Sequence record: OZ077758.1
Strand: one strand, 5' to 3'
Source of the DNA: a phage
DNA length: 44,664 nt
A program made the translations under genes and the position numbers. This document shows positions 5,770 through 43,220 of the stretch, piece after piece. How positions within the stretch are numbered: the stretch's first letter is position 1; each line of letters starts with the position of its first letter. Under the pieces are notes generated by a model. That model ran no database searches, had not been told where the DNA came from, and was given only the letters and a program-made list of their open reading frames with translations.

Positions 5770-5798
5770 TTTTGTGTCCTCGTTGTTGGTGTGCAACC

Positions 5799-5827
5799 AA
5801 TATATGCAACCAATACGAGGATTGCAA
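5799..5827 (-). promoter_or_regulatory. sigma70-like promoter for the minus-strand moron
   Basis: minus strand reads TTGCAA - 17 bp (TCCTCGTATTGGTTGCA) - TATATT about 30 nt upstream of ATG; two direct copies of GCAACCAAT at 5793..5801 and 5806..5814. Confidence 0.45.
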
Positions 5828-5917
5828 GTGAATTTTGCGATTATTTTTATCGCTGATAATATTAGAAGCGTGAAGTCGAGCGGGTGGCCCGCTCTGCCAC
5901 AATCCCAGGGGGATAGC

Positions 5918-6619
5918 ATGAAACTTACTAAAGCAGAATATGACGCGTTGCCGGAAGGTATGAAGGCGCTTTTTGTTGCCGATGGCGACGGGTATAAATC
6001 AACGTTCATGACCGCAGAAGAAGTACAGGCGGAAATTAAGGGTCTGAAAGACAACAACGCGAAGCTGGTGAGCGAGAAGAAAGCAGAAGCCGAACGCCGC
6101 GCCGAAGCTGAGCGCCTTGCGAAAGAGAAAGAGGAAGCCGCCGCGCGCAAAAATGGCGACCTCGAAGCGATCGACAAGTCCTGGAAAGATAAGTTTGCGA
6201 AACACGAAGCAGACACATCGGGAAAAATCGAAGCCTACCGCAAGCAGATCCACGACCTAACCATCGGCAGCGCTGCCAAAGACCTGGCATCGAAGCTATT
6301 CGGTAAGAATGCGGGCATCATGCAACGCCACGTAATGGACCGTCTGACGCTGGAAGACGGCGAAGACGGCAGCTTGAAAGTGCGTGTCTTGCAGGATGGC
6401 AAACCGTCCGCGCTGACTATGGAAGAGCTGGAAAAAGAGTTCCGTAATAACGCCGATTTTGCATCCGTCCTGGCTGGCACGCCAGCCGGTGGCGCGCCTA
6501 GCAAACCGACGCAGGTTGTCGAAGATGTGAAGTCTAAAATTACGATGGGCCATAGCTTCGGTATCACCGATCTCACCAAACAGGCCGGGGATATCATCGC
6601 TAAAATGGGCGACGAGTAA
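5918..6619 (+). CDS. scaffolding protein
   Basis: 233 aa from ATG 5918 (RBS AGGGGGA); highly charged coiled-coil-like (AEAERRAEAERLAKEKEEAAARK); immediately upstream of major capsid gene. Confidence 0.65.
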   Translation: MKLTKAEYDALPEGMKALFVADGDGYKSTFMTAEEVQAEIKGLKDNNAKLVSEKKAEAERRAEAERLAKEKEEAAARKNGDLEAIDKSWKDKFAKHEADTSGKIEAYRKQIHDLTIGSAAKDLASKLFGKNAGIMQRHVMDRLTLEDGEDGSLKVRVLQDGKPSALTMEELEKEFRNNADFASVLAGTPAGGAPSKPTQVVEDVKSKITMGHSFGITDLTKQAGDIIAKMGDE

Positions 6620-6716
6620 GCAGATTGCCCGCGAAAGCGGGCAATTTTGCGAGCGCGTAAAACTAAGGTAACATTAATGCCACTGGGCGAATGCTCACAA
6701 CTCAAAGGATTTCGAT

Positions 6717-7817
6717 ATGTCTTTAACAGTGTTCCAGCGTAAACTCGTTACCGCGGTTACGCAAATGATCCCCGACAACCTGAACGTTTTCAACGCCGCC
6801 GCCAATGGCGCTGTTGTTCTCGGTACTGGTGAAGTGCTGAAGGACGTTATTGAGAAAATGTCCGTAGGCTTGATCGCCAACCTCGTTACCGACCGTAACG
6901 CCTACGCCCCTGTCGGCACTCCGGCAACCGCGAAAGTGCTGGCGCGTATGCTGACCAACTCGGTTAACCTTTCCGCAAAAGTGGGTCCGGTAGCAATCAC
7001 TAAGGCTATGATGGCTAAGATCGAAACCAACGTTAACAGCGTTGCGGCTGAGATTGCGGCACAGGCTACTCAAGCGATTATGCTGCACTACCTGAAAGCT
7101 GGTATCGGCGCAAGTAAAGCGGCGATCGAAAGCAACGTAGCGGCAAAATACACCCAACCGGCGCGCGTTGACGGCGTTGGCGGTCGTACCTTCCCGACCC
7201 TGGCAGACTTCCCGCTGGCGGCTTCTAAGTTCGGCGATCAGGCGTCTTTGATTAAGTCCTGGTTTATGGACGGGGTTACCTGGGCAAACTTCATCGCATA
7301 CCAGGCGCTCCCTTCCGCTGAACAGGTATTCGCAATTGGCGATCTCCAGGTAATGGGCGATGGCCTGGGCCGTCGCTTCATTATCTCCGATGCCGCTGCC
7401 GATGCTATGGGCGCTGGTAACATGCTGGGTCTGGTCCCTGGCGCGGTTGCAGTTACCACCAACGGCCTCGATATGCTGGCGCAGGAGAAAGGCGGTAACG
7501 AGAACATCGAGCGCTGGTGGCAGGGCGAGTTCGACTTCAACGTAGCGGTTAAAGGCTATCGTCTGAAGGCGTCCGCTCGTACCCCGATCGAAGGCGTCCG
7601 CTCGTTCAAGCTGGACGATATCACCACTTCCGCTAACTGGGAACTGGACCAGGGCCAGGTAGACAACGCACCGGCAACCGTGCAGGACGTTGGCGCTGTG
7701 GGTGATGGCGATACTAAAGGCCGTCGTAAGACCCAGGCAGCACAGGCAGTGCCTACCCGTCACATCAAGGAAACCGCTGGCGTACTGGTTACGCTGACGG
7801 CGACCACAGCGTCCTGA
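6717..7817 (+). CDS. major capsid protein
   Basis: 366 aa after scaffold, RBS AAAGGA, followed by strong terminator; size and position typical of an HK97-fold capsid protein. Confidence 0.7.
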   Translation: MSLTVFQRKLVTAVTQMIPDNLNVFNAAANGAVVLGTGEVLKDVIEKMSVGLIANLVTDRNAYAPVGTPATAKVLARMLTNSVNLSAKVGPVAITKAMMAKIETNVNSVAAEIAAQATQAIMLHYLKAGIGASKAAIESNVAAKYTQPARVDGVGGRTFPTLADFPLAASKFGDQASLIKSWFMDGVTWANFIAYQALPSAEQVFAIGDLQVMGDGLGRRFIISDAAADAMGAGNMLGLVPGAVAVTTNGLDMLAQEKGGNENIERWWQGEFDFNVAVKGYRLKASARTPIEGVRSFKLDDITTSANWELDQGQVDNAPATVQDVGAVGDGDTKGRRKTQAAQAVPTRHIKETAGVLVTLTATTAS

Positions 7818-7835
7818 TCTACGCACATCCCAAAT

Positions 7836-7861
7836 GGGCGGGCTTATGCCCGCCTTTTTTA
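7836..7861 (+). terminator. rho-independent terminator after capsid gene
   Basis: GGCGGGCTTATGCCCGCC hairpin followed by TTTTTT. Confidence 0.7.
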
Positions 7862-7875
7862 TAGGAGCAAATAAG

Positions 7876-11384: not shown

Positions 11385-11387
11385 TGA

Positions 11388-11516
11388 AGCGGGACAGGCG
11401 GGACGTCCCGTTTTGTCCCGCCCCTGCAAAACTGCATACCTATTCACTTCCACCGCATAAACTCAAAACGGGACAAGCGGGACGTCCCGTTTTGTCCCGC
11501 CCCTGAAAGGTGCATA
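11388..11516. repeat. two direct copies of a 36-bp GGGAC palindromic element
   Basis: GGGACA(G/A)GCGGGACGTCCCGTTTTGTCCCGCCCCTG at 11391..11426 and 11470..11505 (one mismatch); each contains the 12-bp perfect palindrome CGGGACGTCCCG and 8-bp inverted arms GGCGGGAC / GTCCCGCC. Confidence 0.8.
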
Positions 11517-11540
11517 ACTATTCTAATTTCGTGCATAAAG

Positions 11541-11712
11541 TAAGCGGGACAAAAAGCGGGACAGACAAGGGGCGGGACAAAACGGGACAGCACCCCGTCC
11601 CCGCCAGTGCTGCCGCGGTTTTCAGCCGATCGGGACAGCGGGACAGCACCCCAGTCTTTCAGACTAGACGGGGGTCATCGGCCCCCCTCGTCTGAGACTG
11701 AATAAGGTTTGT
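11541..11712 (+). repeat. GGGACA iteron array plus conserved double-hairpin element (copy A)
   Basis: four GGGACA repeats at spacing 12/16/10, a 34-bp variable block, two more GGGACA, then hairpins AGTCTTTCAGACT and AGACGGGGG..CCCCCCTCGTCT; near-identical to 39596..39772. Confidence 0.8.
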
Positions 11713-11768: not shown

Positions 11769-14411
11769 ATGGCAGATCAAGCGGCAGGCATCACGCTGAA
11801 GGCTGATGTTGCACAAATAAGAACGGCAAATACTGTGCTGGACTCCTTCGCACAGAAATCCGAGAACACAGAAAACAAGGTTAAGAAATTAAACGACACC
11901 CTCGGCAAATCCAAAAAGGTGACGAGTGACGCCGCGGGCGGAATGGAGAAGCTGGCGACTGAATCGCAGCGCGCCGCCGATGGCATGACGAAACAGGAGC
12001 GACTCGCCAACCGGTTGGGCATGTCGACCAAAAACCTGGGCTTTGCCTCGCGTAATGCCGCATTCCAGTTACAGGATATCGCGGTTACGCTTGAGATGGG
12101 GATGCCGGTGCACCGCGTCATGCTTCAGCAGCTCCCACAGCTTACTGGGGCGTTCGGCGGACTGGGTAACACGCTGCGTTATGTTGCGGGATTTCTTGGT
12201 CCGGTAGGGATCGGCCTCGCCGCCGTAACGGCAACGTTAGGCGTGGGCGTGGCAATTACGTCCCGCGCAGAGAACCAGGTCGCCGCGCTTAACAAGACGC
12301 TGGCACTTTCCGGTAACATTTCCGGCCTGACGGCAAACCAGATCCTGGTGCTATCCGAGAACGCCGAGCGCATGGGCGGGTCATTTCGCAAGACGCGTGA
12401 CACAATCCAGGCGCTGGCGGCGGCGGGTGTGAAAGCGGGTGGTGACTTCGGCGCACTGGCGAAGGTAGTGAATGACTTCGCGAAGGTGTCCAGCCAGCCG
12501 ATCGAGGATGTGGTCGCGGCGGTGGCGAAGCTATCTACCGACCCGGTAGGTGGCTTGCGAGCATTGGCGGATAAGTATCACGTCGTAAACGAAGCGCAGA
12601 TCCAGCAGGTGCAGTCACTAGTGACGGCTGGTCGCGAAACCGAAGCGGTGGCGCTGGCTAACAAAACAGCCGCAGCGTCGTTTACCACCATGACCAATGA
12701 GATCAAGTCCAACATGGGTACGCTTGAGCGGTCGATGAACGTCGTTACATCGGCAGCTAAATCTATGTGGGATGCTATCCTGGATGTTGGACGCGCGCAG
12801 TCCTCGAATGAGTCCGAGATGAAAGCGCGTGAGTCATTGCAGCGGCTGACAACGGCTTACTATGCCGAGATGAAAGCGGTAAACGCTGCCGGTGGGGTGA
12901 TGACCGAAGCGCAGAAAGCGCGTATTAACATGCTTTACAGCGAACTGGTCGCCCAGGAAAAAGTAGTGGCGTCGCTAACCCTGCGTAACCGTGCCGAGCG
13001 AGACAACGCAAGTGCCGCTGACGAAGCAGCAAAGGCGAACGAAGAGGCAAACCGCACCGCCCGCGACCGCGCCGCGTTTGAGAAGGAGTACGCAACCAAC
13101 GCGAAGCGGCGAGCCGACGAGATCGCCCGCCTCAATTTGCTGAATAAGCGCGGCGTGATTGACGAGAAAGAGCTTGCCGAGGCGGTGAAGCAAGTAAACG
13201 AGCGTTACAAAGACCCCGCCCCGAAGAAGGCCGCCGCTGTTCGAGTCGATGCCGGGCTGAAAATGCTGGAAGTCGCACGGAGCGAACTGGCCCAGCTTCG
13301 AGAATCCGGCAAGCAGATCGAAGCCAACGCGTCTACGCAGACCCGCACGCAACGCGCTCAAGCGGCCTTAAACAAGCTGATCGCCGACAATGAGCAGTTA
13401 ATCGCTGCGAGCAAAGAAAGAGCGCTAACGGCAGCAGAAAAGCAGCAATTAGTCGAGTTCGGGCGCGTGAAGGAAGTCCGCGAGCAGATCGTCGAAGAAG
13501 CCAAATTGCTGGATGCGAAAGAGCAGCAGGTTAAGGCGCACGCGCAGATCGATGCCTTCGTTAAGAACCAGAACGCCGAACTAAAAGCCACCGCCGCGGG
13601 GTATGCGCTTTCCACTCGCGAAGCGGCAAACCTGCGCGAAGAATTGCAGCTAATTGACCGCCTGAAGCGGGTTGGCGCTAACGATACCGATATTGACAAG
13701 GCGGTGTCTAAGCTGCGAGAAGTGCAGGAAGCACAGACCGGCGCTAACGCCTCGTTATGGGATGGATTCAGTCGCGGGCTTAAGGATAGCGTGGATGAAA
13801 TGGGTAACGGCTATACGCAGATGACGTCGCTCACAAAATTCACGTTCAGCGCTATGCAGGACACGATGAACGAGTTTTTCGAGACTGGCAAGCTAAACGC
13901 AAAGGATATGGTTAAATCCATCCTGAGCGAACTAATCAAGCTGGCTACCTCGCAGGCATTCAAGTCCATCGTTAGCGCTTTCGGCGGCGACGGCGGCAAA
14001 AACGGATTGTTCGGCGCTATCTTCTCGGGCCTCACTAAGAATGCGGACGGCGGAGCGTACGCAGGAGGCAATCTCGCGGCCTATTCCGGGCAGGTGGTAA
14101 GCCAGCCAACCTTTTTCAGTTATGGCGTCCAGGCGTTCGCTAAGGGCGCAGGATTGATGGGTGAGGCCGGACCCGAGGCCATCATGCCACTGAAGCGCGG
14201 GCCGGATGGCAAACTGGGCGTTGCCGCGTCTGGCGCAGGCGGTGGTATGGTCGTGACGACTAACGTTTACACGGGGACCGGTAAGACGGACACCAGTGTT
14301 AGCGGGCCAGACCCACGTACCGCGCAGGCGTTCGGCAAGCAAATCACCGAGGCGGTGAAGTCCGAGATCGTGAAAGCGACTAAACCAGGTGGTGTACTTT
14401 ACAAACGATGA
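11769..14411 (+). CDS. tail tape measure protein
   Basis: 880 aa, long alpha-helical Ala/Gln/Glu-rich middle region, Gly-rich C-terminus; follows G/GT. Confidence 0.85.
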   Translation: MADQAAGITLKADVAQIRTANTVLDSFAQKSENTENKVKKLNDTLGKSKKVTSDAAGGMEKLATESQRAADGMTKQERLANRLGMSTKNLGFASRNAAFQLQDIAVTLEMGMPVHRVMLQQLPQLTGAFGGLGNTLRYVAGFLGPVGIGLAAVTATLGVGVAITSRAENQVAALNKTLALSGNISGLTANQILVLSENAERMGGSFRKTRDTIQALAAAGVKAGGDFGALAKVVNDFAKVSSQPIEDVVAAVAKLSTDPVGGLRALADKYHVVNEAQIQQVQSLVTAGRETEAVALANKTAAASFTTMTNEIKSNMGTLERSMNVVTSAAKSMWDAILDVGRAQSSNESEMKARESLQRLTTAYYAEMKAVNAAGGVMTEAQKARINMLYSELVAQEKVVASLTLRNRAERDNASAADEAAKANEEANRTARDRAAFEKEYATNAKRRADEIARLNLLNKRGVIDEKELAEAVKQVNERYKDPAPKKAAAVRVDAGLKMLEVARSELAQLRESGKQIEANASTQTRTQRAQAALNKLIADNEQLIAASKERALTAAEKQQLVEFGRVKEVREQIVEEAKLLDAKEQQVKAHAQIDAFVKNQNAELKATAAGYALSTREAANLREELQLIDRLKRVGANDTDIDKAVSKLREVQEAQTGANASLWDGFSRGLKDSVDEMGNGYTQMTSLTKFTFSAMQDTMNEFFETGKLNAKDMVKSILSELIKLATSQAFKSIVSAFGGDGGKNGLFGAIFSGLTKNADGGAYAGGNLAAYSGQVVSQPTFFSYGVQAFAKGAGLMGEAGPEAIMPLKRGPDGKLGVAASGAGGGMVVTTNVYTGTGKTDTSVSGPDPRTAQAFGKQITEAVKSEIVKATKPGGVLYKR

Positions 14412-21612: not shown

Positions 21613-21636
21613 AAAGCCCCGAAAGGGGCTTATTTG
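21613..21636. terminator. hairpin terminator between convergent genes
   Basis: AGCCCCGAAAGGGGCT hairpin with flanking T-rich sequence on both strands. Confidence 0.5.
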
Positions 21637-21848
21637 CAGGTGGTGCTTTTGAAGTGGTCGACCGACACATACTGGAAGTTGAACGGATACCCCGCCTTGA
21701 GCATTTTGTGCCCGCTAAAGTCGGCGACACCGAACACCGGTACAGAATACTCCATACCGCTATTCATATATGTCGCGTCGCAGATTTTAGACGGCATACC
21801 GGCACAACCGGACAGAAGAACCGCACAAATCATAATTAAAGTTTTCAT
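21630..21848 (-). CDS. small lipoprotein, candidate superinfection-exclusion (Llp/Cor-like role)
   Basis: 72 aa from ATG 21848..21846 with strong RBS AGGAGA; signal peptide MKTLIMICAVLLSGC with lipobox LSGC; opposite strand to flanking tail genes. Confidence 0.65.
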   Translation of the reverse strand: MKTLIMICAVLLSGCAGMPSKICDATYMNSGMEYSVPVFGVADFSGHKMLKAGYPFNFQYVSVDHFKSTTCK

Positions 21849-21927
21849 GTTATCATCTCCTATATTTGGTTGAGTTTTAGTATTACACCTCTCAACCAGG
21901 ATTGCAACCAATTATGAGGATTCAGCT

Positions 21928-24485: not shown

Positions 24486-24995
24486 TTATTTCAGCGCGCT
24501 ACGTACCAGTGTTTTTTCCATGTTGCGGAAGTCTTCCGGCGTCATGAGGATTTTGGACCCGTCTTCGCCGGTGAGCACGACCATAGGCTGGACTTCTTGG
24601 GCCGCAATGCCGAAATTAGCGGCTTTAACCGTTTTACCGGGGGTAAATGCGTCGCCTGTTTTGACGGGCCAACCTTTGAGGCTATCGAATTGTGCTGCCG
24701 TTGTATCGATCTGAATCTCGTCATGCACGGTCATGTAAGACTCGCCCAGCAGGGCGGCATACGCCACCAGGTCCACGATGTTATCTTCCTGGTGCTTACG
24801 GGTCTGGCGCACCAGCTTCAGGCAGATCAGGAAGGTCCAGGCTTCTTGCTCGGTAAGGTCGCGCCCGGTAAGCGCGTTAAACACGGCGGCGGTCTGTTTA
24901 GCGCTGCGTTCTTCTTTCGCGTTGTCATAGCCGTTTTCTTTCCCGCGCTGTTCCATAGTGGTGGCGGCGTTTTTGCAGTATTCGTATGCTTTCAT
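24486..24995 (-). CDS. hypothetical protein (conserved phage alpha-helical family, function unknown)
   Basis: 169 aa from ATG 24995..24993 with RBS AAGGAAAA; the longer track ORF to 25121 is rejected. Confidence 0.55.
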   Translation of the reverse strand: MKAYEYCKNAATTMEQRGKENGYDNAKEERSAKQTAAVFNALTGRDLTEQEAWTFLICLKLVRQTRKHQEDNIVDLVAYAALLGESYMTVHDEIQIDTTAAQFDSLKGWPVKTGDAFTPGKTVKAANFGIAAQEVQPMVVLTGEDGSKILMTPEDFRNMEKTLVRSALK

Positions 24996-25047
24996 TATGT
25001 TTTCCTTTTTAGTGGGGGAGGTATGGCCCCCAACGTGATTAAGATAC

Positions 25048-25069
25048 TGCAACCAACCTATTGGTTGCA
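25048..25069. promoter_or_regulatory. perfect palindromic operator TGCAACCAA-N4-TTGGTTGCA
   Basis: inverted repeat of the TTGGTTGCA motif, overlapping the 3' end of the HAD gene and upstream of gene 24486..24995; adjacent TTGCAAGTGAATTTTGC 17-mer also found at 5822..5838. Confidence 0.55.
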
Positions 25070-26660: not shown

Positions 26661-26903
26661 CTATTTAGTCTCCGTAGTGCGGATTTCATCGCGTGGAATA
26701 AATTTGCCGTCCATCTCTACCCAGCAGACACCATAGCGCCATTGGGTGTTGCGACCTGTTTGCTCCGCGTACACAGTCCGGCATTCGTAGCGTTCCGAGT
26801 AGTAGACACCCGCGGCAGGTACGCAAACACAAACGGCAATCATGAGGGTGAGGAGCACCCAAAACCGAAGGTCGCCGTCGTAGTCGAAAAATAATGATTT
26901 CAT
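26661..26903 (-). CDS. small membrane protein
   Basis: 80 aa; hydrophobic helix WVLLTLMIAVCVCVPAAGVYY; RBS GGAGA. Confidence 0.5.
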   Translation of the reverse strand: MKSLFFDYDGDLRFWVLLTLMIAVCVCVPAAGVYYSERYECRTVYAEQTGRNTQWRYGVCWVEMDGKFIPRDEIRTTETK

Positions 26904-26950: not shown

Positions 26951-26979
26951 AATATAATGCAACCAATATGGTTATGCAA
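26951..26979 (-). promoter_or_regulatory. sigma70-like promoter
   Basis: minus strand TTGCAT - 17 bp - TATATT; two direct ATTGGTTGCAT copies (one supplies the -35, one abuts the -10). Confidence 0.5.
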
Positions 26980-26984
26980 CCAAT

Positions 26985-29687: not shown

Positions 29688-29861
29688 TTATTTTTGCTCT
29701 GCGCGGTAGCGGCGCTGCCGTTCGCGCTCTTTTTTATTGCGGCACGATTTGCACTCGGCCCGATACCCGTCTGGACTGCGCGCAGTCTTACCGGTGTATT
29801 TGTGGAACTGGGATAGCGGTTTAACGCAGCCGCAATTACTGCAGCGTTTTTCTTCAATCAT
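29688..29861 (-). CDS. small zinc-ribbon protein
   Basis: 57 aa from ATG 29861 with RBS GAGGA; CxxC ... CxxC (CSNCGC ... CKSC); basic C-terminus. Confidence 0.5.
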   Translation of the reverse strand: MIEEKRCSNCGCVKPLSQFHKYTGKTARSPDGYRAECKSCRNKKERERQRRYRAEQK

Positions 29862-29892: not shown

Positions 29893-29921
29893 AATATACC
29901 GCTACGCGACCAATTCAGCAA
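29893..29921 (-). promoter_or_regulatory. sigma70-like internal promoter
   Basis: minus strand TTGCTG - 17 bp - TATATT with ATTGGTTGC at the -35; lies inside the 3' end of the VRR-NUC gene. Confidence 0.4.
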
Positions 29922-30180
29922 CCAATAAATCACAGTCGGCTATGTTGTCGATAACGCGAACGTCCGCACCGCGGCGGGCCATCCGCTCATGTTCTCGTAC
30001 CTGGTGCGGCTTCGGTTTGCCTCCGGGGCGCTTCACTTCGACGAAAACTATTCTGCCGTTGATGATGATGATCAGATCTGGCGCACCTGCGCGCCCCTCC
30101 CAAGCCACTTTGCGGCAGAATCCGCCTACCGCTTTCACCCGTCGCATCAGGTGACTTTGAATCTTGCCCTCTGGTGTCAT
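29902..30180 (-). CDS. VRR-NUC domain nuclease
   Basis: 92 aa from ATG 30180 overlapping polymerase stop; motifs GAPDLIII and VFVEVKRPGGK..Q. Confidence 0.7.
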   Translation of the reverse strand: MTPEGKIQSHLMRRVKAVGGFCRKVAWEGRAGAPDLIIIINGRIVFVEVKRPGGKPKPHQVREHERMARRGADVRVIDNIADCDLLVAELVA

Positions 30181-32696: not shown

Positions 32697-33476
32697 TTAA
32701 CGGCGGCGACGTTTACGTGGCGCTTCGTCTTCGTCGTCGTCCTCATCTTCGTCATCGCGTGGCTTACGACGTTTGCGAGGTTTTTCATCTTCCTCATCGT
32801 CGTCGTCATCGCGGCGCTTGGATTTCTTGGACTTGCGCGGCTTGTCATCATCATCGTCATCACGACGTTTTGACTTTTTGGACTTGCGCGGTGCTTCGTC
32901 TTCGTCGTCGTTGTCCAGGTCTTCATCGGAGCAAGAAGACCCGCCACCTCCGAAGGCTTCGCCGTCTTCACGGAATCGCAGACCCAGCAAGCCAGCACCG
33001 AGACCCTTGCCGTTGGTATTGTTCCATGCCCAAATATCAAGGGACACGTTGCAATAACAACCGGAGTAGATCTCCTGGCCTTCAATCTCGTCGCCGTCGA
33101 TGGTCAGACCTTGTTCAGTCTGCTTCTCGCCGAGTGACGTTTGAATGATTGGTTGTTTGAACGATTTGGCGTTGATATACAACATGCCTTCGAATTCTTC
33201 GGTTACTTCATCGCGTTCGTCGCCGTCGCGAACTGCACATTCCTTAGAATCCTGGGCGTAGTGGCGGTCCATCCACTTATCGGCATTCTTCTCGGATTTC
33301 AGCTTATCGGTGAGCACTGCGCGCGCTGCCGCTTCCACTTTGTCCACCTGCGGATCTTCTTTATCAAGAAGAATCACGGCACGGTATGCCGGTTTTTGTC
33401 CATCCTGTTTAGGGGTGTCACGTTCCCAAATTTTCAGGAAGCATACGCGCACATTTTTCAGGTTGACTTTAGCCAT
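32697..33476 (-). CDS. putative ssDNA-binding protein (DUF2815-like) with charged repeat tail
   Basis: 259 aa from ATG 33476 (RBS GAGGA); N-terminus MAKVNLKNVRV; C-terminal 70 aa are alternating poly-Asp/Glu and Lys/Arg blocks; position next to Cas4-like nuclease and polymerase. Confidence 0.5.
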   Translation of the reverse strand: MAKVNLKNVRVCFLKIWERDTPKQDGQKPAYRAVILLDKEDPQVDKVEAAARAVLTDKLKSEKNADKWMDRHYAQDSKECAVRDGDERDEVTEEFEGMLYINAKSFKQPIIQTSLGEKQTEQGLTIDGDEIEGQEIYSGCYCNVSLDIWAWNNTNGKGLGAGLLGLRFREDGEAFGGGGSSCSDEDLDNDDEDEAPRKSKKSKRRDDDDDDKPRKSKKSKRRDDDDDEEDEKPRKRRKPRDDEDEDDDEDEAPRKRRRR

Positions 33477-33541
33477 TTTCCAATTCCTCATTTTCACATG
33501 TATCGGGGTTATTGGAAGCCACCCCGTTCGGCTTGGTTGCT

Positions 33542-33570
33542 AATCTACTTGGTTGCGCCTAAGCGGTCAA
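33542..33570 (-). promoter_or_regulatory. sigma70-like promoter upstream of SSB-like gene
   Basis: minus strand TTGACC - 17 bp - TAGATT; two TTGGTTGC copies on + strand at 33533..33540 and 33549..33556. Confidence 0.4.
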
Positions 33571-36559: not shown

Positions 36560-36589
36560 ATAATAGATTGGTTGCAGGATGGGTGTCAA
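36560..36589 (-). promoter_or_regulatory. strong sigma70-like early promoter (leftward)
   Basis: minus strand TTGACA - 18 bp - TATTAT with GCAACCAAT in the spacer next to the -10. Confidence 0.55.
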
Positions 36590-36706: not shown

Positions 36707-36753
36707 TTGACACCGTGCGGTTTTGGGTGTAGTTTCGTTGGTCATTAACCAAC
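36707..36753 (+). promoter_or_regulatory. rightward early promoter with palindromic operator at transcription start
   Basis: TTGACA (36707..36712) - 17 bp - TAGTTT, followed by palindrome GTTGGT-CATTA-ACCAAC (36737..36753) and RBS GAGGG. Confidence 0.5.
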
Positions 36754-36766: not shown

Positions 36767-37096
36767 ATGAATGTAAACGACGCAATCGAAATGTTAACGA
36801 AGACTGTTTGCAGTGAGACAAGCCGGTCATGGGCATACACCGATGCCGTGGGGGCTGTGTTATTTGAAATCGAACGACTGCGGCTTACCGAAAAAGAATT
36901 GCGCGCCAGGCTGGAACTACTCAACGGTACAGCAGCAAGCAAGCTGCAAAAACACAATGAAGAAATGGAAGAATACAAAAAGCAGGTTATCCGTTTGCGC
37001 GCCGAGGGTAAATCATGGGCGATGATTGCCGAGTTGACCGGAATTAATCAGAGCACAGTGCGCTCCTGGGTACGCAATAATAAAACTTCTAAGTAA
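36767..37096 (+). CDS. helix-turn-helix DNA-binding protein (putative regulator)
   Basis: 109 aa; C-terminal HTH-like KSWAMIAELTGINQSTVRSWVRNN; first gene of rightward early operon. Confidence 0.6.
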   Translation: MNVNDAIEMLTKTVCSETSRSWAYTDAVGAVLFEIERLRLTEKELRARLELLNGTAASKLQKHNEEMEEYKKQVIRLRAEGKSWAMIAELTGINQSTVRSWVRNNKTSK

Positions 37097-37106: not shown

Positions 37107-39323
37107 ATGAGCTTGATTAAATTCGCTGTAACAAAACCCGCTAAAAAAGGCGAAAAAGCCAGGGCGGAGAACTTCCAGATGACGACCGATGAGTTTTTCG
37201 AATTTATCAAAGATGCGAAAGAAATCTCCTCGGTGCATATCAACAAGACGGAAGATAAAGCCGAGTATGCGCGCCGCAAGCGTAAGGCCGATGGCATCGT
37301 GGCGTATACCAGTGACGGATTGCGTCGTAAGACCAGTGCGGTGGACCGCTCGATCCTGTTCTTTGATATTGACCGCACCGACACCCGCACCCTGCGCCGC
37401 TGCCGTAAGGCGTTCATCGACGCGGGTCTGGAACACGTATTTCACACCACCACCGGCGACCGCCACCCGCTGAAGGGCGGCACGCGTTGCGCCCGTTTCC
37501 TGGTGCTCACTGACAAGCCTGTACCGGCTGAAGACCTGGGCCGCGTCCAGTATGCACTATTACACCAACTGGGTCTGTCAGATGTGGACTTCGACGATTG
37601 CACGAAAGACACAAACCGCCTGATGTACCTGCCACACCAGCAGTCCGTTATTAAGTGCCACTATGGCAAGCGCGCCAATGTGCGTCGTCTACTCCGTCGG
37701 GCGGACAAGCTGGGGGTGGAAAAAGAGGAAGTACGACGCGAACTGACCCAGGGCGATGACGGCGTGGCGGACGGTATTCTGGATTGGTGCTTCCAGGCAG
37801 GATTCGAACCGCTGTCGTCCGGTCGTGGCTATGAAGTACCGTGCCCGAACGAACACCTGCACAGCGGCGAAGGGTCCACCGCGATCATGGTTAAGGATGG
37901 CGAGATCCGTTTCAAGTGTATGCACACCGGCAACGAGTGTTGCTCGGAACTGAACAGACACCAGCACCTGGCGCTACGTCTTATCGGTATCCCGGACCAC
38001 CTGAACGTAGAACCGCACAACATGTCACGTAAGCAAATTGCCGCCATCCTCCCCGGACTGGACGACGAGGAAGTGGAATCGTGCTATGAACATATCGTTG
38101 ATGCGGTCGGTGACGGCGACGAGTACGGCGGATGTACGGACGCAGACCTGGACAACGAGCCGGTTGCACTGTTCAGTAAGCACGACCCGATCATCGAGGG
38201 GTTGATTAACTTCAAATCGACCTGGTATATGGCTGGCGAATCGAACATCGGTAAATCGTTCTACGTGCTGGGACAAATGGGCGCGGTTGCCGCGGGGATT
38301 CCGTTCGGTGGTGCGAAGGTAGTCCAGTCTCATTGCTTCTATTTCGACGCGGAAGGTGGCGAAGCCTCCAACCAGCGTAAGGAAGCATTGCAGATCAAAT
38401 ATGAGCACGACCTCGACAAGCTGCACATTATAGACCTGCAATCACGCGGCTGGGATATCACCAGCAAATCCGGCTTGCGTGAAGTTATCAGCTTTATCAA
38501 CCGCACCGCTAACGGCGAACCGGTTGGCCTGGTGGCGTTCGACTCACTCAACCAGACTGTTGCGCTGCGGTCCGCCGATGCTAAGCCGTTCGACGAGAAC
38601 AACGCCAGCGATATGGGTGAAGTGGTCAAGGCGCTGAAGGCCATCGCGGAAAATACAGGCGGCAGTGCGGGCGTCATCCACCACCCGGCTAAAGGTGCGA
38701 ACGGCAGCAGAACGCCACGCGGGTCCGGCGCGCTTCATGGTGCTGTTGATTCCGCGTTCTTCCTGGAGCAACCGGACGACAACCAGCCCGGACAATTGAA
38801 CCTGTACCATGAGAAGGCACGTAACGGCATCAAGCAAGCGCCGCGCGGATTCGTCCTTCTCAAGTGCAAGGTTAAGGTGGATCTCCGCAAGTCCGAGGCG
38901 TTCGAAGCCCACCAGTCCACCAGCACCGGGCCGGACTTCGGTGATGTGGTTGCCGGTTGGGACGTCAAGCCAATTGCCTCCACGCCACGCGACGAGACTC
39001 TTTACCTCGTACCGGTCGCCCTGGCACCGTTCGCTATTGAACAGGCGAAGGCCGCGGGCAAGGCCGCAGTTAAGGAAGAGAACGCCGCGGGGCCGCGCAA
39101 CGAAAAAGAGAAAGTGCTTTATGCGGCACTGGAAAAACTGATGGAAGATAACCCGGACCATACCGGATTCAGTAAATCGGCAATTGTCCGCCAGGCTGGA
39201 CTGGCAAAAGGTGGCACATCGACGAAGGCAATCGACGATATGGTAGAGCGCGGAGTGTTAGGTTTTTATACCGATCCGCACAAAAAGGTGGCACATCGAC
39301 GAAGGCAATCGACGATATGGTAG
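37107..39323 (+). CDS. bifunctional DNA primase (AEP-type) / helicase, C-terminus altered by tandem duplication
   Basis: 738 aa; N-terminal AEP-like motifs (LFFDIDRTD, TTTGDRHP), Cys/His cluster, C-terminal RecA-fold ATPase with Walker A GESNIGKS and Walker B VAFDSL; reading frame is shifted by a 77-bp duplication near the 3' end. Confidence 0.75.
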   Translation: MSLIKFAVTKPAKKGEKARAENFQMTTDEFFEFIKDAKEISSVHINKTEDKAEYARRKRKADGIVAYTSDGLRRKTSAVDRSILFFDIDRTDTRTLRRCRKAFIDAGLEHVFHTTTGDRHPLKGGTRCARFLVLTDKPVPAEDLGRVQYALLHQLGLSDVDFDDCTKDTNRLMYLPHQQSVIKCHYGKRANVRRLLRRADKLGVEKEEVRRELTQGDDGVADGILDWCFQAGFEPLSSGRGYEVPCPNEHLHSGEGSTAIMVKDGEIRFKCMHTGNECCSELNRHQHLALRLIGIPDHLNVEPHNMSRKQIAAILPGLDDEEVESCYEHIVDAVGDGDEYGGCTDADLDNEPVALFSKHDPIIEGLINFKSTWYMAGESNIGKSFYVLGQMGAVAAGIPFGGAKVVQSHCFYFDAEGGEASNQRKEALQIKYEHDLDKLHIIDLQSRGWDITSKSGLREVISFINRTANGEPVGLVAFDSLNQTVALRSADAKPFDENNASDMGEVVKALKAIAENTGGSAGVIHHPAKGANGSRTPRGSGALHGAVDSAFFLEQPDDNQPGQLNLYHEKARNGIKQAPRGFVLLKCKVKVDLRKSEAFEAHQSTSTGPDFGDVVAGWDVKPIASTPRDETLYLVPVALAPFAIEQAKAAGKAAVKEENAAGPRNEKEKVLYAALEKLMEDNPDHTGFSKSAIVRQAGLAKGGTSTKAIDDMVERGVLGFYTDPHKKVAHRRRQSTIW

Positions 39324-39359
39324 AGCGCGGAGTGTTAGGTTTTTATACCGATCCGCACA
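39206..39359. repeat. perfect 77-bp tandem duplication
   Basis: 39206..39282 and 39283..39359 are identical (AAAAGGTGGCACATCGACGAAGGCAATCGACGATATGGTAGAGCGCGGAGTGTTAGGTTTTTATACCGATCCGCACA). Confidence 0.9.
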
Positions 39360-39457
39360 CCGGGGCCATATATGGGTCGTCGAATATCGTCATCAAAACG
39401 AATATACCCATCACGCTTTCGGCGACCGATGACGACCTGAAAGATTAATTTGTGCGC

Positions 39458-39560
39458 GTATTGGTTGCCGATATGGGAATTCCCATATCGCTAAAAGATT
39501 AAATTTTGCGCGCATTGGTTGCCATTTTGGGTGTTTTTATCAGGTCGTATTGGTTGCCGT
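39458..39560. promoter_or_regulatory. three spaced ATTGGTTGCC sites plus 20-bp perfect palindrome
   Basis: ATTGGTTGCC at 39460..39469, 39514..39523 and 39549..39558; GATATGGGAATTCCCATATC palindrome at 39470..39489. Confidence 0.6.
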
Positions 39561-39595
39561 GTAGTGTGATTATTATGAATAGTTATGCAATAAAA

Positions 39596-39772
39596 CTGCA
39601 TAAAACAAACGGGACAAAAAGCGGGACAAACAAGGGGCGGGACAAAGCGGGACAGCACCCCCGTCCCGCCCCGGATGACGCGGCCTGGAGAGGAGCGGGA
39701 CAGCGGGACAGCACCCCAGTCTTTCAGACTAGACGGGGGTCAGTGGCCCCCCTCGTCTGAGACTGAATAAAA
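39596..39772 (+). repeat. GGGACA iteron array plus conserved double-hairpin element (copy B)
   Basis: same architecture as 11541..11712; flanks nearly identical, central 34-bp block diverged at about half the positions with length conserved; preceded by AT-rich segment 39565..39610. Confidence 0.8.
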
Positions 39773-39925
39773 TCCGGGGATTGCAAAATACACGGCAGCA
39801 TGATGCGAAGTGCGGTCGTAGGTGAACTAGGCAACCAATGCGAGTTGCATTATGCGAAGTGAAAAATGCAGTTTGCAGTCACAGCGGATAGCGATCAACT
39901 TTTTCATGCGCGTGATTAATATTGG

Positions 39926-39954
39926 TTGCACCCCGCCTGGCACCCTGCTATATT
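39926..39954 (+). promoter_or_regulatory. sigma70-like promoter
   Basis: TTGCAC - 17 bp - TATATT, built from two ATTGGTTGCAC copies; leader GGTTGCACACCAACATGAGGA also found at the moron promoter. Confidence 0.5.
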
Positions 39955-39982
39955 GGTTGCACACCAACATGAGGACTGAACG

Positions 39983-40288
39983 ATGAAAGCGATTATCTGG
40001 AATTACGCATTAGCCGTGGCAAAGCTGTACGAAGCGAAACACACAAACGGCAACGCAGACGAAGCGCGCGAGGTCGTCATCCTGACCCAGCAGGCAATCA
40101 TGGACGCGTTCGACGATATGTTTGCCAGCCTGGACGAACTGGAACCGCTGCGTGTGGCAATCTGCGAATATGCGATGGCATTTGCCCGTGAGCGCCTGGC
40201 GTATCGTTTCGGGATCGGCGATAAGGCAGTGACAAACGTCGCCCGGATTAAAGCCCAGCGCGAACTATTCGCGCAGCTTGCGAAATAA
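39983..40288 (+). CDS. hypothetical protein
   Basis: 101-aa ORF with RBS GAGGA. Confidence 0.55.
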   Translation: MKAIIWNYALAVAKLYEAKHTNGNADEAREVVILTQQAIMDAFDDMFASLDELEPLRVAICEYAMAFARERLAYRFGIGDKAVTNVARIKAQRELFAQLAK

Positions 40289-40297
40289 GGGGCCAAA

Positions 40298-40567
40298 ATG
40301 GGCCGTAGACGAGAAAAACAGCTTTCGTGGCATATTCCCCTGCATTGCATACGAATATGGGCTAAGAATGCGGTTGAGGGCGATTCTGTGTTCTGGTGCT
40401 ATCGAGACGACGTAAAGCCACTGACGCAGACTCGCTACTTGCACCAGTTCGCAGCACAACACGATTTCAGGGTGCGGACTTCCTTGCAACCAATGGGAAT
40501 ACGTATTACATTACGCCGGAAGCCCGCCATTGAGCGGGTAGGCAAACACTGGAGACTGAGCAGATGA
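40298..40567 (+). CDS. hypothetical protein
   Basis: 89-aa Arg-rich ORF. Confidence 0.4.
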   Translation: MGRRREKQLSWHIPLHCIRIWAKNAVEGDSVFWCYRDDVKPLTQTRYLHQFAAQHDFRVRTSLQPMGIRITLRRKPAIERVGKHWRLSR

Positions 40568-40694
40568 TGATAGGCGGATTCTCGCAGGAGTATATCTACC
40601 TGCATATGTGCGTACTTGACTACGAACAAAACGGCATCGCTACGGTGTGCGATGGCGACACGAAGACTATAGAAGAGATCGAGGAGACAGAGCA

Positions 40695-41252: not shown

Positions 41253-41373
41253 GTGCGACGATCCGTGATATGCTGATGCATAACCGCTTTGAGATAGGCG
41301 GTCGTGTGTTCCGCAATTACTTCGTGGCGCGTGCCTGGGCGCGCCATATTGGCAAACCAGAGGGGGCAATACG

Positions 41374-41661
41374 ATGCTACACGATTTGATTTATTGGTTT
41401 GGATTGGGGTGCGCGACACTCTTTGCTACGGTGCTGGCGTTGTTGGTATGGGTGTTCCTGATTTGGCCCGCGGTGGAAGCCGCCAGTATTACCCGCATGA
41501 CGTTCCAGATATACAAGCGCCGTGGCATCACGGAGCACCCTACCCGGTTGCGCATGTGGTGGCTGTGGTATCGGGATATGATAGGCGGGCGAACATTCGA
41601 AGCCGTCCGGTCGAGTGGATGGGAGTGGAAAGGCGTCGGCAAGTGGTCCATTTTCGATTAA
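41374..41661 (+). CDS. small membrane protein
   Basis: 95 aa; hydrophobic helix GLGCATLFATVLALLVWVFLIW. Confidence 0.45.
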   Translation: MLHDLIYWFGLGCATLFATVLALLVWVFLIWPAVEAASITRMTFQIYKRRGITEHPTRLRMWWLWYRDMIGGRTFEAVRSSGWEWKGVGKWSIFD

Positions 41662-41678
41662 TTATGCAAGCGTGATAT

Positions 41679-41713
41679 AGTCCCAGTGAGCTAAAACTTA
41701 CTGGGACTTTTTT
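41679..41713 (+). terminator. rho-independent terminator immediately upstream of holin start
   Basis: GTCCCAGT-N12-ACTGGGAC hairpin followed by TTTTTT, ending 1 nt before holin ATG. Confidence 0.6.
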
Positions 41714-42004
41714 ATGGATAAGCTAAACGAGTGGTTATTTGCCCTCGCATGTCTGGCTGGCGGCTTCGTAGGCGCACGCATTCATGGCGAGGCTACGAAA
41801 GGGCCGCTAAACTTCGTTTTATATATCGTGGTAGGCTTCTTGTGTGCCATCTTTGGCGCTCCAGCTATCGCCGAGTGGGCTGGCTTATCTGGCGAGCGCA
41901 CTGTTGCCGGTTTGGGCTTCGTAACTGCAATCTTCTGGATGCCAATAGCCGCCCGGATCAGGGAGACTATTGAGTCGTTCCGACTTCCGGGGGGTGCAAA
42001 ATGA
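41714..42004 (+). CDS. holin (putative)
   Basis: 96 aa; hydrophobic transmembrane segments and charged C-terminus; directly upstream of endolysin. Confidence 0.6.
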   Translation: MDKLNEWLFALACLAGGFVGARIHGEATKGPLNFVLYIVVGFLCAIFGAPAIAEWAGLSGERTVAGLGFVTAIFWMPIAARIRETIESFRLPGGAK

Positions 42005-42246
42005 TTATCTCCGTCCTGTTGTTTGTTATCATAGGGGCTTCGTCCCTGTTTAACGTGTATGCGCCGTCCGTCCGGGATGGCATTTTCGGTCGGGTGCTGT
42101 ATCTGTTAACGGCAATGGTCTGTATTATCGGATTGTTGCAAACAGGAGACGTATCTGACACCACCTGGACCGCGTTAATCTGGCTGTTTGCATTGCGCAC
42201 GCTGCGTAATGCTGTTTTGAATGGGGTAAAACATGCGATTCAGTGA
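42001..42246 (+). CDS. small membrane protein (second holin-like / antiholin candidate)
   Basis: 81 aa, two hydrophobic helices, ATGA overlap with holin and overlap with endolysin start. Confidence 0.5.
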   Translation: MIISVLLFVIIGASSLFNVYAPSVRDGIFGRVLYLLTAMVCIIGLLQTGDVSDTTWTALIWLFALRTLRNAVLNGVKHAIQ

Positions 42247-42724
42247 CAACGGTCTACGATTTACGGCAGCATGGGAGCAATTCAGCCCAGTGCCGTATTT
42301 CGCGACTAAGAAAGAGCAGGCCCGCGGCCTGTACACCTGGGGTTATGGTCACACCGGCACTAACCCGCCTCGAAGCATTACCCGAGCGGAAGCGCTGGAG
42401 CTACTCAAGCGCGATGTGGCGTATGCGGAAGATTGGGTGAACAAATACGCACATCCGAGCATCAATCAAGCGCAATTCGACGCGCTGGTGGACCTGGTTA
42501 TCAATGCTGGTCAAGGCCCGATCGTACCGGACCATATCGCGAACGATTTTGATGATGCGGTGCGACTTGGCGACTGGGCGAAGGTCCGTGCTACTCTGCC
42601 GCAGTTCCGCAAGCAAGGCGGGGAAGTGCTTAAGGGTCTGGTCCGTCGAGCAATCGGCAGGCAAGCGCTATTCGATGGAAAGCAGTGGGACGTTGCCGAG
42701 AAGATCGGGCGTAACGCAGCATAA
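42233..42724 (+). CDS. endolysin, GH24 lysozyme family
   Basis: 163 aa; motif GLYTWGYGHTG and N-terminal E/D pattern typical of T4 E / lambda R type lysozymes. Confidence 0.8.
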   Translation: MRFSDNGLRFTAAWEQFSPVPYFATKKEQARGLYTWGYGHTGTNPPRSITRAEALELLKRDVAYAEDWVNKYAHPSINQAQFDALVDLVINAGQGPIVPDHIANDFDDAVRLGDWAKVRATLPQFRKQGGEVLKGLVRRAIGRQALFDGKQWDVAEKIGRNAA

Positions 42725-42740
42725 TACGGGGTAACACAGT

Positions 42741-43154
42741 ATGTTAAAAAGTATTCTTGATCATAACGCCGACGCGCTTGCCGCGCTGGCTAAAACCGAA
42801 GACCCAGGCGCACGCGCTATTGTAGCGGATACGATCAGCCATGCGGGGGTATTCGACGCGAAGTTACCCAGCCCGCCGGAAAGTAAGCCGGTGACAAGTG
42901 CGACCGTAACTATCGCACCGGAATCCGCCGCAGTTGGTGCGAAGGCCACCGCTTCGGTTGAGGTCCAGCCCCCCGACGCAACTAACAAGGCAGGGAAGTG
43001 GGTGTCGTCGAATCCTGCCTGTGCGGCAATCGATCAGACTACCGGAGAAATCACAGCCCAAACGGAAGGTAGCGCCCACATCTTTTGGGTGGCATCCGAC
43101 GGCAGCGGGGCGATGGCGTCCGCCATTTTCACCGTAACGGGAGCAGGAGAATAA
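42741..43154 (+). CDS. bacterial Ig-like (Big_2-like) domain protein
   Basis: 137 aa; C-terminal region with Big_2-like pattern (WVSSNPACAAIDQTTGEITA...GSAHIF). Confidence 0.5.
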   Translation: MLKSILDHNADALAALAKTEDPGARAIVADTISHAGVFDAKLPSPPESKPVTSATVTIAPESAAVGAKATASVEVQPPDATNKAGKWVSSNPACAAIDQTTGEITAQTEGSAHIFWVASDGSGAMASAIFTVTGAGE

Positions 43155-43160
43155 AACCAC

Positions 43161-43187
43161 AAGCCCGGTTAATTCCGGGCTTTTTAT
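43161..43187 (+). terminator. rho-independent terminator
   Basis: GCCCGG-TTAATT-CCGGGC hairpin followed by TTTTT. Confidence 0.65.
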
Positions 43188-43190
43188 TGC

Positions 43191-43220
43191 TTGACTTGCA
43201 ACCAACTATCGGCCCATACT
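43191..43220 (+). promoter_or_regulatory. sigma70-like promoter
   Basis: TTGACT - 18 bp - CATACT with TGCAACCAA in the spacer. Confidence 0.4.

Follow-up and report, generated by a model that had tools for sequence, protein, structure and literature searches.

The C1 protein of the temperate phage P1 acts through an asymmetric operator of 17 base pairs (bp), many copies of which are scattered in either orientation over the -35 and -10 hexamers of many promoters. In mycobacteriophage L5 the small helix-turn-helix (HTH) protein gp71 uses a 13-bp asymmetric site found in about 20-30 copies in short intergenic regions within one clade; these stoperators all face the same way with respect to transcription and halt elongation in the prophage. 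A phage word at the -35 region is known from the MotA box of T4, with sigma appropriation, where a box near -30 replaces the -35 hexamer of the middle promoters with MotA and AsiA, and from the TTGC-N6-TTGC sites of lambda CII. Regulators of the LuxR type, such as NarL and GerE, use short asymmetric half-sites that occur singly or as direct or inverted pairs with variable spacing, and the promoter-early stem-loop (PeSL) repeats of T4-type phages are promoter-containing repeats which flank variable gene cassettes. Here we describe a short repeated word in sequence record OZ077758.1, a stretch of 44,664 nucleotides (nt) analysed over its full length (the window), which is a complete or near-complete Dhillonvirus genome, that of a lytic siphovirus of Escherichia coli resembling HK578, SSL-2009a, JL1 and SO-1. 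Dhillonviruses are common coliphages that figure in work on phage therapy, in the BASEL collection and in many studies of anti-phage defence, and no description of their transcription control was found in the literature searched.

Position frequencies of the word give (A/G)TTGGTTGC(A>C>G>T). Its enrichment, location, promoter register, conservation and clade restriction, as well as the presence of an HTH protein in the same clade, were computed directly. With moderate confidence we read the motif (A/G)TTGGTTGC(A/C/G) as a dispersed asymmetric operator of a phage-encoded protein, most likely the small HTH protein encoded at 36767..37096, which would mainly block promoters. In its working, the system appears closest to P1 C1, L5 gp71 and the half-site use of NarL/GerE, and our analysis places it as a member of none of them. 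As with C1, asymmetric and dispersed sites overlap promoters and one phage protein, here a candidate, would serve a regulon of multiple promoters; unlike P1, the phage is lytic, the core comprises 8-9 bp and the candidate is a small protein with a coiled coil and an HTH. With L5 it has in common a short, asymmetric, repeated intergenic site within one clade and a small HTH protein (the candidate), and it differs in having sites in both orientations and within promoter cores, and no lysogeny module. Neither a C1 nor a gp71 homologue turned up in the Pfam and PHROG scans, in which no search was aimed at them. The flexible use of half-sites recalls NarL and GerE, on whose HTH that of the candidate superposes at about 1 Å, whereas the candidate is without receiver or ligand domain, has a long N-terminal helix and shows only generic HTH sequence similarity. 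As for MotA and CII, in four promoters the word replaces or overlaps the -35 hexamer before a good -10 (9-mer at -39..-30), but it is also found in spacers, at the start site and in reverse, and both sequence and spacing differ. Its positions are more variable than those of T4 middle promoters, MotA and AsiA domains were absent from the 20 proteins scanned, and no CII homologue was found among the proteins scanned. PeSL repeats are matched by two of the promoters (P1 and P9 below), which are repeated promoter sequences beside variable cassettes, whereas the unit in common here is mostly 8-10 bp long and stands in otherwise unrelated promoters.

Enrichment, location and promoter register of the word

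The exact 9-mer TTGGTTGCA occurs in 12 copies, counting both strands; in 100 dinucleotide-preserving shuffles the average is 0.34 and the highest count 3, so that none reaches 12. Its 8-mer core TTGGTTGC has 21 copies where 1.98 would be expected, which none of 100 shuffles attains, and shows no strand bias; an unbiased k-mer scan ranks TGCAACCAAT as the top over-represented 10-mer, with 10 copies against 0.12 expected. The over-representation reported in a first-pass annotation of this DNA is thereby borne out. All 18 sites that it listed are real: eleven are exact 9-mers (5792-5800, 5805-5813, 21903-21911, 25048-25056, 25061-25069, 26958-26966, 26975-26983, 36568-36576, 39922-39930, 39953-39961 and 43197-43205) and seven differ at the ninth base (T at 29917 and 33533, G at 33549, C at 39461, 39515, 39550 and 39830). 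Several of its minus-strand coordinates were one base too high, since the 8-mer core had been marked, and one exact copy had been missed, at 40485-40493 (-) inside gene 40298..40567.

Intergenic DNA makes up 7.3% of the window and fully holds 16 of the 21 cores (binomial P = 9e-15). Three more (25061, 29918 and 40486) are at a gene edge or intragenic, yet within a promoter-like site, and those at 13092 and 16440 are deep in tail genes, two being the chance expectation. Octamers with one mismatch, at 1.23 per kilobase (kb) in intergenic and 0.82 per kb in coding DNA, were counted as not enriched, which implies that functional copies are nearly always exact over 8 bp. The 19 copies of promoter type are asymmetric and dispersed over 11 regions of intergenic or promoter DNA, as dispersed asymmetric operators are, and are arranged as single copies, as direct pairs 12, 13, 16, 17 or 31 bp apart, and as one inverted pair. 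The latter, at 25048-25069, is indeed the perfect inverted repeat described earlier (TGCAACCAA-cCTA-TTGGTTGCA); as the only such pair, it leaves the set without the dyad symmetry of lambda-type operators. Nor do the sites form the regular tandem cluster at one locus that is typical of replication-origin iterons, the sole cluster (39461-39558) having spacings of 54 and 35 bp.

Sigma-70-like sites were scored with our own position weight matrix (PWM), and the copies were placed relative to the -10 hexamer, set at -12..-7. The sites are as follows.

P1, 5792..5813 (-): predicted promoter of the reverse-oriented Nmad5 gene 5005..5769; -35 TTGCAA 5822-5827, 17-nt spacer, -10 TATATT 5799-5804; forward copies at 5805-5813 (-21..-13, abutting the -10) and 5792-5800 (-8..+1).
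P2, 21903..21911 (-): predicted cor promoter; the copy at -38..-30 gives the -35 TTGCAA 21902-21907, followed by a 16-nt spacer with a degenerate second copy, cTGGTTGAg, and the -10 TAATAC 21880-21885.
P3, 25048..25069 (-): predicted promoter of gene 24486..24995 with the inverted pair TGCAACCAA-N4-TTGGTTGCA; the reverse copy gives the -35 TTGCAA 25065-25070, and the forward copy 25048-25056 (-22..-14) is one nt from the -10 TATCTT 25041-25046.
P4, 26958..26983 (-): predicted promoter of the 26661..26903 operon; copy 26975-26983 (-39..-31) gives the -35 TTGCAT, and copy 26958-26966 (-22..-14) is one nt from the -10 TATATT 26951-26956.
P5, 29905..29925 (-): predicted promoter of the Lar-like gene 29688..29861; copy 29917-29925 (TTGGTTGCT) gives the -35 TTGCTG, with a degenerate copy TTGGTCGC in the spacer and the -10 TATATT 29893-29898.
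P6, 33533..33557 (+): predicted minus-strand promoter of the SSB-like gene 32697..33476; TTGACC 33565-33570, 17-nt spacer, TAGATT 33542-33547; reverse copies at 33549-33557 (-22..-14) and 33533-33541 (-6..+3).
P7, 36568..36576 (+): predicted leftward early promoter on the minus strand; TTGACA 36584-36589, 18-nt spacer, TATTAT 36560-36565; one reverse copy in the spacer at -23..-15, two tandem copies in divergent relatives.
P9, 39922..39961 (+): predicted promoter of the rightward operon starting at 39983; copy 39922-39930 (-39..-31) gives the -35 TTGCAC, the -10 is TATATT 39949-39954, and copy 39953-39961 is at -8..+1.
P9b, 40485..40493 (-): internal plus-strand promoter-like site within gene 40298..40567; TTGCAA 40484-40489, 17-nt spacer, TACATT 40507-40512; the reverse copy overlaps the -35 at -34..-26.
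P10, 43197..43229 (-): predicted plus-strand promoter after the terminator 43161-43182; TTGACT 43191-43196, 18-nt spacer, CATACT 43215-43220; reverse copy 43197-43205 at -30..-22.
Cluster, 39461..39558 (+): three direct TTGGTTGCC copies just past the original stop codon of the primase-helicase gene.
Single copy, 39830..39838 (-): reverse TTGGTTGCC between a GGGAC-repeat element (described below) and P9.

Fifteen copies lie inside eleven predicted sigma-70-like promoters, all of them between -39 and +3 and in either orientation. Forward copies at -39..-31 (P4, P5, P9) or -38..-30 (P2) supply the -35 hexamer through their TTGCAN, and reverse copies at -35..-26 (P3, P9b) give TTGCAA as reverse complement, while the reverse copy of P10 at -30..-22 abuts the canonical TTGACT. 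Nearer the start, copies at -23..-13 end 0-2 nt from the -10 hexamer (forward in P1, P3 and P4, reverse in P6 and P7), and others cover -8..+3 (forward in P1 and P9, reverse in P6 and in the P10 of relatives). Eight promoters have two copies if degenerate ones are included (TTGGTCGC in P5, TGGTTGA in P2, GCGACCGA in P10); in relatives, the second reverse copy of P10 lies over the -10 and +1 (CATACTGCAACCAA). Canonical TTGAC promoters carry reverse copies (P6, P7, P10) and TTGCAN promoters forward copies at -39..-30 (P2, P4, P5, P9).

A -35 hexamer should have a fixed orientation and stand 16-18 bp from the -10. Five copies do so, namely those of P2, P4, P5, P9 and, as reverse complement, P9b (promoters at 21903, 26975, 29917, 39922 and 40485), and at least nine do not, being located in spacers, over the start site or in reverse. 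Such mixed orientation and position within the footprint of RNA polymerase rule out a fixed core-promoter element and fit an operator. The earlier reading of the word as operators rather than a core element, with direct and inverted repeats in both orientations, thus holds for the set as a whole, with the reservation that in five promoters TTGCAN itself is the -35 hexamer.

The best promoter match of the genome, 36589..36560(-) (TTGACA-18-TATTAT, 11/12), bears the motif (P7), as do eight of the 21 best PWM scores (P7, P6, P1, P9b, P5, P4, P9 and P10); P3 and P2 score lower. A consensus scan found sigma-70-like sites to be overall no more frequent than in shuffles, with four of its matches coinciding with the motif. 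The first-pass statement that the motif is present at almost every promoter was accordingly too broad: promoter-like sites at 36707 (+) and 36694 (-) have near-copies only, and that at 44567 has no copy of any kind. The companion statement, that every site is in or beside a -35/-10 pair, applies to nearly all copies, with the exception of 39461, 39515 and 39830, and only weakly to 39550. This last copy of the cluster is the only one followed by a -10-like hexamer (TATTAT 39571-39576), from which it is at an odd distance (-33..-25), and no convincing promoter was found at 39830. Relatives have two cluster copies, the third in the window having arisen from a local 41-nt duplication.

Three further interpretations of the copies were discarded. 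Overlapping tandem promoters are no source of the spacer copies, as no -10 follows these at 16-18 nt. Extended -10 elements (TGn) were set aside, there being no TG before the -10 in the four motif-bearing promoters listed by the scan, the others having been judged by eye. Finally, a rightward promoter using 36568 as its -35 (TTGCAG-16-TAATTT) has a low PWM score, and 36707-36735 offers the HTH gene a far better one.

Conservation of the word and the candidate regulator

Nine orthologous promoter regions were aligned between the window, HK578, SSL-2009a, jat, CHD5UKE2 and three metagenomic relatives. Motif columns are invariant in 99.1% of 112 cases, against 76.5% of columns belonging to the -35 only, 76% of those belonging to the -10 only and 66.5% of 561 other non-coding columns (Mann-Whitney P = 2.5e-12). 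The motif stays constant in P1 and P4 next to variable spacer bases on its -35 side; the P1 copies are kept in L002-L004, where the remaining spacer bases vary. Metagenomic relatives with largely diverged flanks still have it in P5 (together with the degenerate second copy), P7 and P10. The P9b copy is conserved in all relatives. A word held constant amid variable spacers and flanks points to selection on the word itself, which descent from a shared cassette does not explain.

The numbers and positions of sites are equal in SSL-2009a, jat, CHD5UKE2 and HK578, and 15 Dhillonvirus contigs of IMG/VR carry 0.3-0.9 cores per kb. Three divergent metagenomic relatives, with a DNA polymerase of 80-83% protein identity and the same synteny, have 13, 10 and 13 cores in 20, 10.7 and 20 kb. 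Outside this clade the word is scarce: the outgroup Jerseyvirus SETP7 has no exact 9-mer and two cores, Kagunavirus K1H one and five, and the k-mer rankings of these two phages contain no comparable word. A 100-kb sample of E. coli K-12 (2% of the genome) contains two 9-mers, both in coding sequence and near chance, and the palindrome TGCAACCAA-N4-TTGGTTGCA has 15 scattered matches in 185,579 species genomes (about chance by our estimate), none of them in Escherichia. Direct motif pairs were found at no fewer than 120 IMG/VR loci; nine of the 80 examined are Dhillonvirus-like, and the other examined loci are tandem coding repeats or isolated coding copies lacking a promoter context. This distribution points to the phage clade, and not to the host, as the home of the motif, in keeping with the earlier suggestion of a phage-encoded regulator, and the clade is the one to which the HTH protein is confined. 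The literature searched on Dhillonvirus, HK578/SSL-2009a and the 9-mer contained no account of the motif or a regulator, matches to the 9-mer being unrelated primers.

The candidate regulator and its putative promoter are located as follows.

36767..37096 (+): candidate regulator, 109 amino acids, the first gene of the rightward early operon and directly upstream of the primase-helicase gene.
36707..36735 (+): putative HTH-gene promoter, TTGACA-17-TAGTTT, near-consensus, followed by the degenerate palindrome TTGGTcattAACCAAc (to 36750).

Twenty early and accessory proteins were scanned against Pfam, ten of them also against PHROGs, and only 36767..37096 was found to contain a DNA-binding domain. 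Three HTH families match above their gathering cut-offs (HTH_23 at 30.8 bits with a cut-off of 24.6, HTH_28 at 28.4 with 25, and Sigma70_r4_2 at 27.8 with 25.7), spanning residues 65-105. In an AlphaFold model with a predicted local distance difference test score (pLDDT) of 86.7, a short helix is followed by a 59-residue helix (21-79), a tri-helical HTH (84-107, with helices at 84-91 and 95-107) and a basic tail; the 59-residue helix probably drives oligomerisation. By Foldseek, the HTH superposes locally at about 1 Å on those of GerE, NarL, SdiA, LiaR, DeoR and resolvases, the E-values for the whole protein not being significant. Fold and sequence searches of the PDB gave generic HTH and coiled-coil matches only, with no solved homologue and no informative full-length relative, and the matches assign the protein to no specific HTH subfamily. 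Public annotations of the candidate as 'transposase', 'resolvase' or 'Gam nuclease inhibitor' are unsupported by these fold and sequence searches.

The candidate is as restricted as the word. By tblastn it was found in Dhillonvirus records only (155 records), a collection of 5.8 billion proteins contains only 34 related clusters, and of the 57 window genes only a few, this one included, occur in every ingroup genome compared but in neither outgroup. Over the N-terminal half identity falls to 35-77%, and in HK578 and CHD5UKE2 the N-terminus is both longer and of different sequence. The HTH, 'EG(K/L)SW..IAE.TGIN.ST(V/I)R.W', is nearly invariant, the recognition helix (ST(V/I)R.W) especially, which parallels the constancy of the motif. 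Neither the protein collection (34 close clusters) nor a locus search of IMG/VR (15 Dhillonvirus contigs) yielded a distant homologue whose recognition helix is altered. The promoter of the HTH gene itself has an exact reverse copy (GCAACCAA) at about +3..+11 in the divergent metagenomic relatives L007, L009 and L011. Autoregulation of the HTH gene is thus possible judging by these sites, but would not be general, since CHD5UKE2 has no copy at this promoter.

At or just after the predicted start of three promoters (5770-5800, 36736-36752 and 39949-39969) there is a palindrome TTGGT-N5-ACCAAC followed by a Shine-Dalgarno sequence; it reads TTGGTtgcacACCAAC at P1 and P9 and TTGGTcattAACCAAC at the HTH promoter. 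A role at the RNA level is not favoured, because the predicted start lies inside the palindrome. Directly behind the palindrome of P1 and P9, phages differ in sequence and in their downstream genes, in the manner of a cassette boundary. The gene behind P1 in the window, 5005-5769 (-) in the head module, matches Nmad5 ('nucleotide modification associated domain 5') in Pfam with E = 1e-56; in relatives the first gene driven by P1 is another, orf8 (SSL-2009a, CHD5UKE2), with the Nmad5 gene downstream of orf8, and in jat the Nmad5 gene is kept only in part. Just upstream of the leftward early promoter, a very short transcription unit is predicted on the minus strand (36694-36600), consisting of TTGAAA-17-AATAAT with an extended -10 TG and then about 55 nt to a hairpin GCGCCG...CGGCGC with U10. 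It has a fold z of -2.5, contains a near-copy of the motif (ATTGGTTAGC), is conserved in CHD5UKE2, with an analogous hairpin and T-run in divergent relatives, and may be a small RNA or a leader/attenuator.

Proposed working and competing explanations

The plus strand of the first 23.8 kb encodes the terminase, portal, head and tail genes, interrupted by two reverse-oriented genes, that of the Nmad5-domain protein (5005..5769) and cor (21630..21848). A long leftward block on the minus strand, from 36.5 to 23.9 kb, contains replication, recombination and methylase genes, and a rightward block on the plus strand, from 36.7 kb, comprises the HTH protein, primase-helicase, small open reading frames, lysis genes, an Ig-domain protein and the exonuclease. 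Phages jat, SSL-2009a, UHP65 and TheodorHerzl match 95-98% of the half from 24000 to 44664 at 91-92% identity, and the gene order agrees with the SSL-2009a annotation.

On this layout, the HTH protein would be made as the first product of the rightward early operon, from a near-consensus sigma-70 promoter, and would bind single, direct-paired or inverted sites at about eleven promoters of the sigma-70 type read by the host RNA polymerase. Since the sites overlap the -35, the spacer beside the -10, or the -10 and start, the bound protein would compete with RNA polymerase and so occlude the promoter. The outcome would be a coordinated down-regulation, either shut-off or feedback dosing, of early and middle units: the leftward replication and recombination operon with its internal promoters, the rightward 39983 operon, the unit ahead of the exonuclease and terminase genes, and the reverse-oriented Nmad5 gene and cor. 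The regulon suggested in the first-pass annotation, with both morons (the Nmad5 gene and cor) and early genes, is in accordance with the sites found, which extend to the replication and early operons. We infer, accordingly with due reserve, that the predicted promoters are real, that a protein binds them, that the HTH protein is the binder and that its effect is repression. The way in which copy orientation goes with the type of -35 hexamer would also suit an activating or dual role.

Several points weigh against an occluding HTH repressor. The cluster at 39461-39558 and the copy at 39830 do not fit promoter occlusion and adjoin the GGGAC-repeat element, and at the promoter of the HTH gene the window has a degenerate copy only and CHD5UKE2 none. 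Five promoters use the motif itself as their -35 hexamer, and there contacts with RNA polymerase could explain part of the conservation. The link between HTH protein and motif is drawn from one clade against two outgroup genomes, effectively one evolutionary event, and an invariant stretch of 8-9 bp is long for a single HTH, which implies extra contacts or another protein. Furthermore, a repressor acting on nearly every promoter of a strictly lytic phage, accessory genes included, is unusual, and the literature searched gave no maps of transcription start sites, binding data or expression timing for any Dhillonvirus.

One tentative and rather doubtful alternative keeps the motif and the HTH protein, with its likeness to sigma region 4, and has this single protein operate an early-to-middle switch in two modes. 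Reverse copies in the spacer or at the start site would turn off the TTGAC promoters (P6, P7, P10 and the HTH promoter). P2, P4, P5 and P9, whose forward motif itself takes up -39..-31, would be turned on, the protein standing in for sigma region 4 or helping it; the switch would resemble MotA/AsiA or CII in function without being related to them. The forward copies at occluding positions in P1, P3, P4 and P9 partly contradict such a division.

That the motif is instead a promoter element read by RNA polymerase, i.e. a phage-preferred -35 variant TTGCAN with an upstream TTGG, or an element recognised by a sigma region 4 modified or supplied by the phage, without a separate repressor, is unlikely. 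TTGCAN is certainly found 16-17 nt upstream of a good -10 in five promoters (P2, P4, P5, P9 and, as reverse complement, P9b), P1 and P3 also have TTGCAA as their -35, and the candidate protein matches Pfam Sigma70_r4_2 above its gathering score. However, at least 9 of the 19 copies of non-coding type cannot be a -35 (the reverse copies of P6, P7 and P10 and the forward ones at -22..-13 and -8..+1, which lack a -10 at the proper distance downstream), P6, P7 and P10 already own canonical TTGAC(A/C/T) hexamers, and the TTGG half is outside the hexamer yet invariant. The scan of 20 proteins revealed no homologue of a sigma factor, MotA or AsiA.

Exploitation by the phage of a site for a host transcription factor or nucleoid protein of E. 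coli would suit promoters that need host machinery from the first minute, among which the earliest, P7, bears a site. This is nevertheless quite improbable given the near-chance, intragenic occurrence in the 100-kb K-12 sample (2% of the genome), the absence of the palindromic version from Escherichia and the near-absence of the 9-mer from the outgroups, K1H (which infects the same host species) having one exact copy and Jerseyvirus SETP7 none. We know of no E. coli regulator with this consensus.

A very unlikely source of the repeats is the spread of a single promoter cassette by duplication or recombination, the copies serving as linkers for the exchange of gene cassettes and owing their identity to descent or gene conversion. 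P1 and P9 do have an identical 21-mer in common (TATATTGGTTGCACACCAACA, repeat I16), and P1 and P3 a 15-mer that extends beyond the motif (AAAATTCACTTGCAA, repeat family D18). At P1 and P9 both sequence and gene content switch abruptly right behind ...ACCAACA, with the Nmad5 gene at P1 against an orf8-type gene in relatives, and the gene downstream of P9 is 59-73% identical among genomes otherwise about 95% identical. For most copies, however, the similarity ends with the 8-10 bp core, either orientation to the promoter is found, and in orthologous promoters the core is invariant next to variable spacer bases, as expected from selection on the core.

A site of DNA metabolism, whether an iteron or accessory site for the primase-helicase or origin or the target of an HNH nuclease or methyltransferase, is highly improbable: three or four copies do cluster right after the primase-helicase gene beside a possible-origin GGGAC element, and the ingroup, unlike the outgroups, has a Dcm-like methyltransferase gene and, in the divergent relative L007, the HNH gene, but the other 15 copies are dispersed in fixed registers to the -35 and -10 hexamers, which replication, nicking or a methylation target does not predict, and the core lacks strand bias.

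Neighbouring elements and meaning for Dhillonviruses

The GGGAC-repeat element beside the cluster is one of two copies of a 174-nt element (within 11387-11705 and at 39597-39770, 87% identity), one lying between the genes for tail chaperone and tape measure, the other behind the primase-helicase gene. The element is dense in GGGAC/GTCCC pentamers (GCGGGACA...) and has an RNA fold z of -3.0 and no Rfam match; Rfam gave zero matches in the window as a whole. GGGAC words are enriched also in the metagenomic relative L007. The element could be an origin or iteron region with two separated copies, as ori and crr of phage P4, or a non-coding RNA. In the intergenic region between the primase gene and 39983 there is also a perfect 20-bp palindrome, GATATGGGAATTCCCATATC, at 39470-39489, and just before the GGGAC array a palindrome TTATGCA-N7-TGCATAA at 39584-39604, both conserved-looking; the 15-mer GCAT(G/T)ATGCGAAGTG flanks the 39830 motif copy as a direct repeat.

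Upstream of the cluster, a perfect 77-nt tandem duplication (39206-39282 and 39283-39359) causes a frameshift at the 3' end of the primase-helicase gene 37107..39323. Removal of one copy restores an open reading frame of 2265 nt that ends ...LSATDDDLKD* at 39448, a length as in relatives; the duplication is either genuine, the C-terminus being then altered, or an artefact of assembly. A second over-represented word, the 8-mer GTTGCCGT/ACGGCAAC, has 25 copies throughout the window against 2.1 expected; related words (TGCCGTTG, CAACGGCAA) are likewise enriched in Jerseyvirus SETP7 and Kagunavirus K1H, and it is far more widely shared than the operator-like motif. At the right end, the intrinsic terminator after the exonuclease gene (44556-44595) overlaps a promoter-like site with a perfect -10, TTGGTG-17-TATAAT at 44567 (+), about 70 nt upstream of terS. 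Its sequence is conserved in SSL-2009a and, having no motif copy, it is possibly a motif-free late promoter.

A phage regulator with dispersed operators is in principle already well known, and what is new is this system, undescribed in the literature found. If the proposed reading is true, the operator-promoter combinations (strong sigma-70 promoters with an 8-9 bp switch) would provide parts for phage engineering or orthogonal parts. For the Dhillonviruses themselves it would provide a map of about eleven promoters together with a testable candidate for a master regulator, and would explain how cor and the Nmad5 gene are tied to the phage programme.

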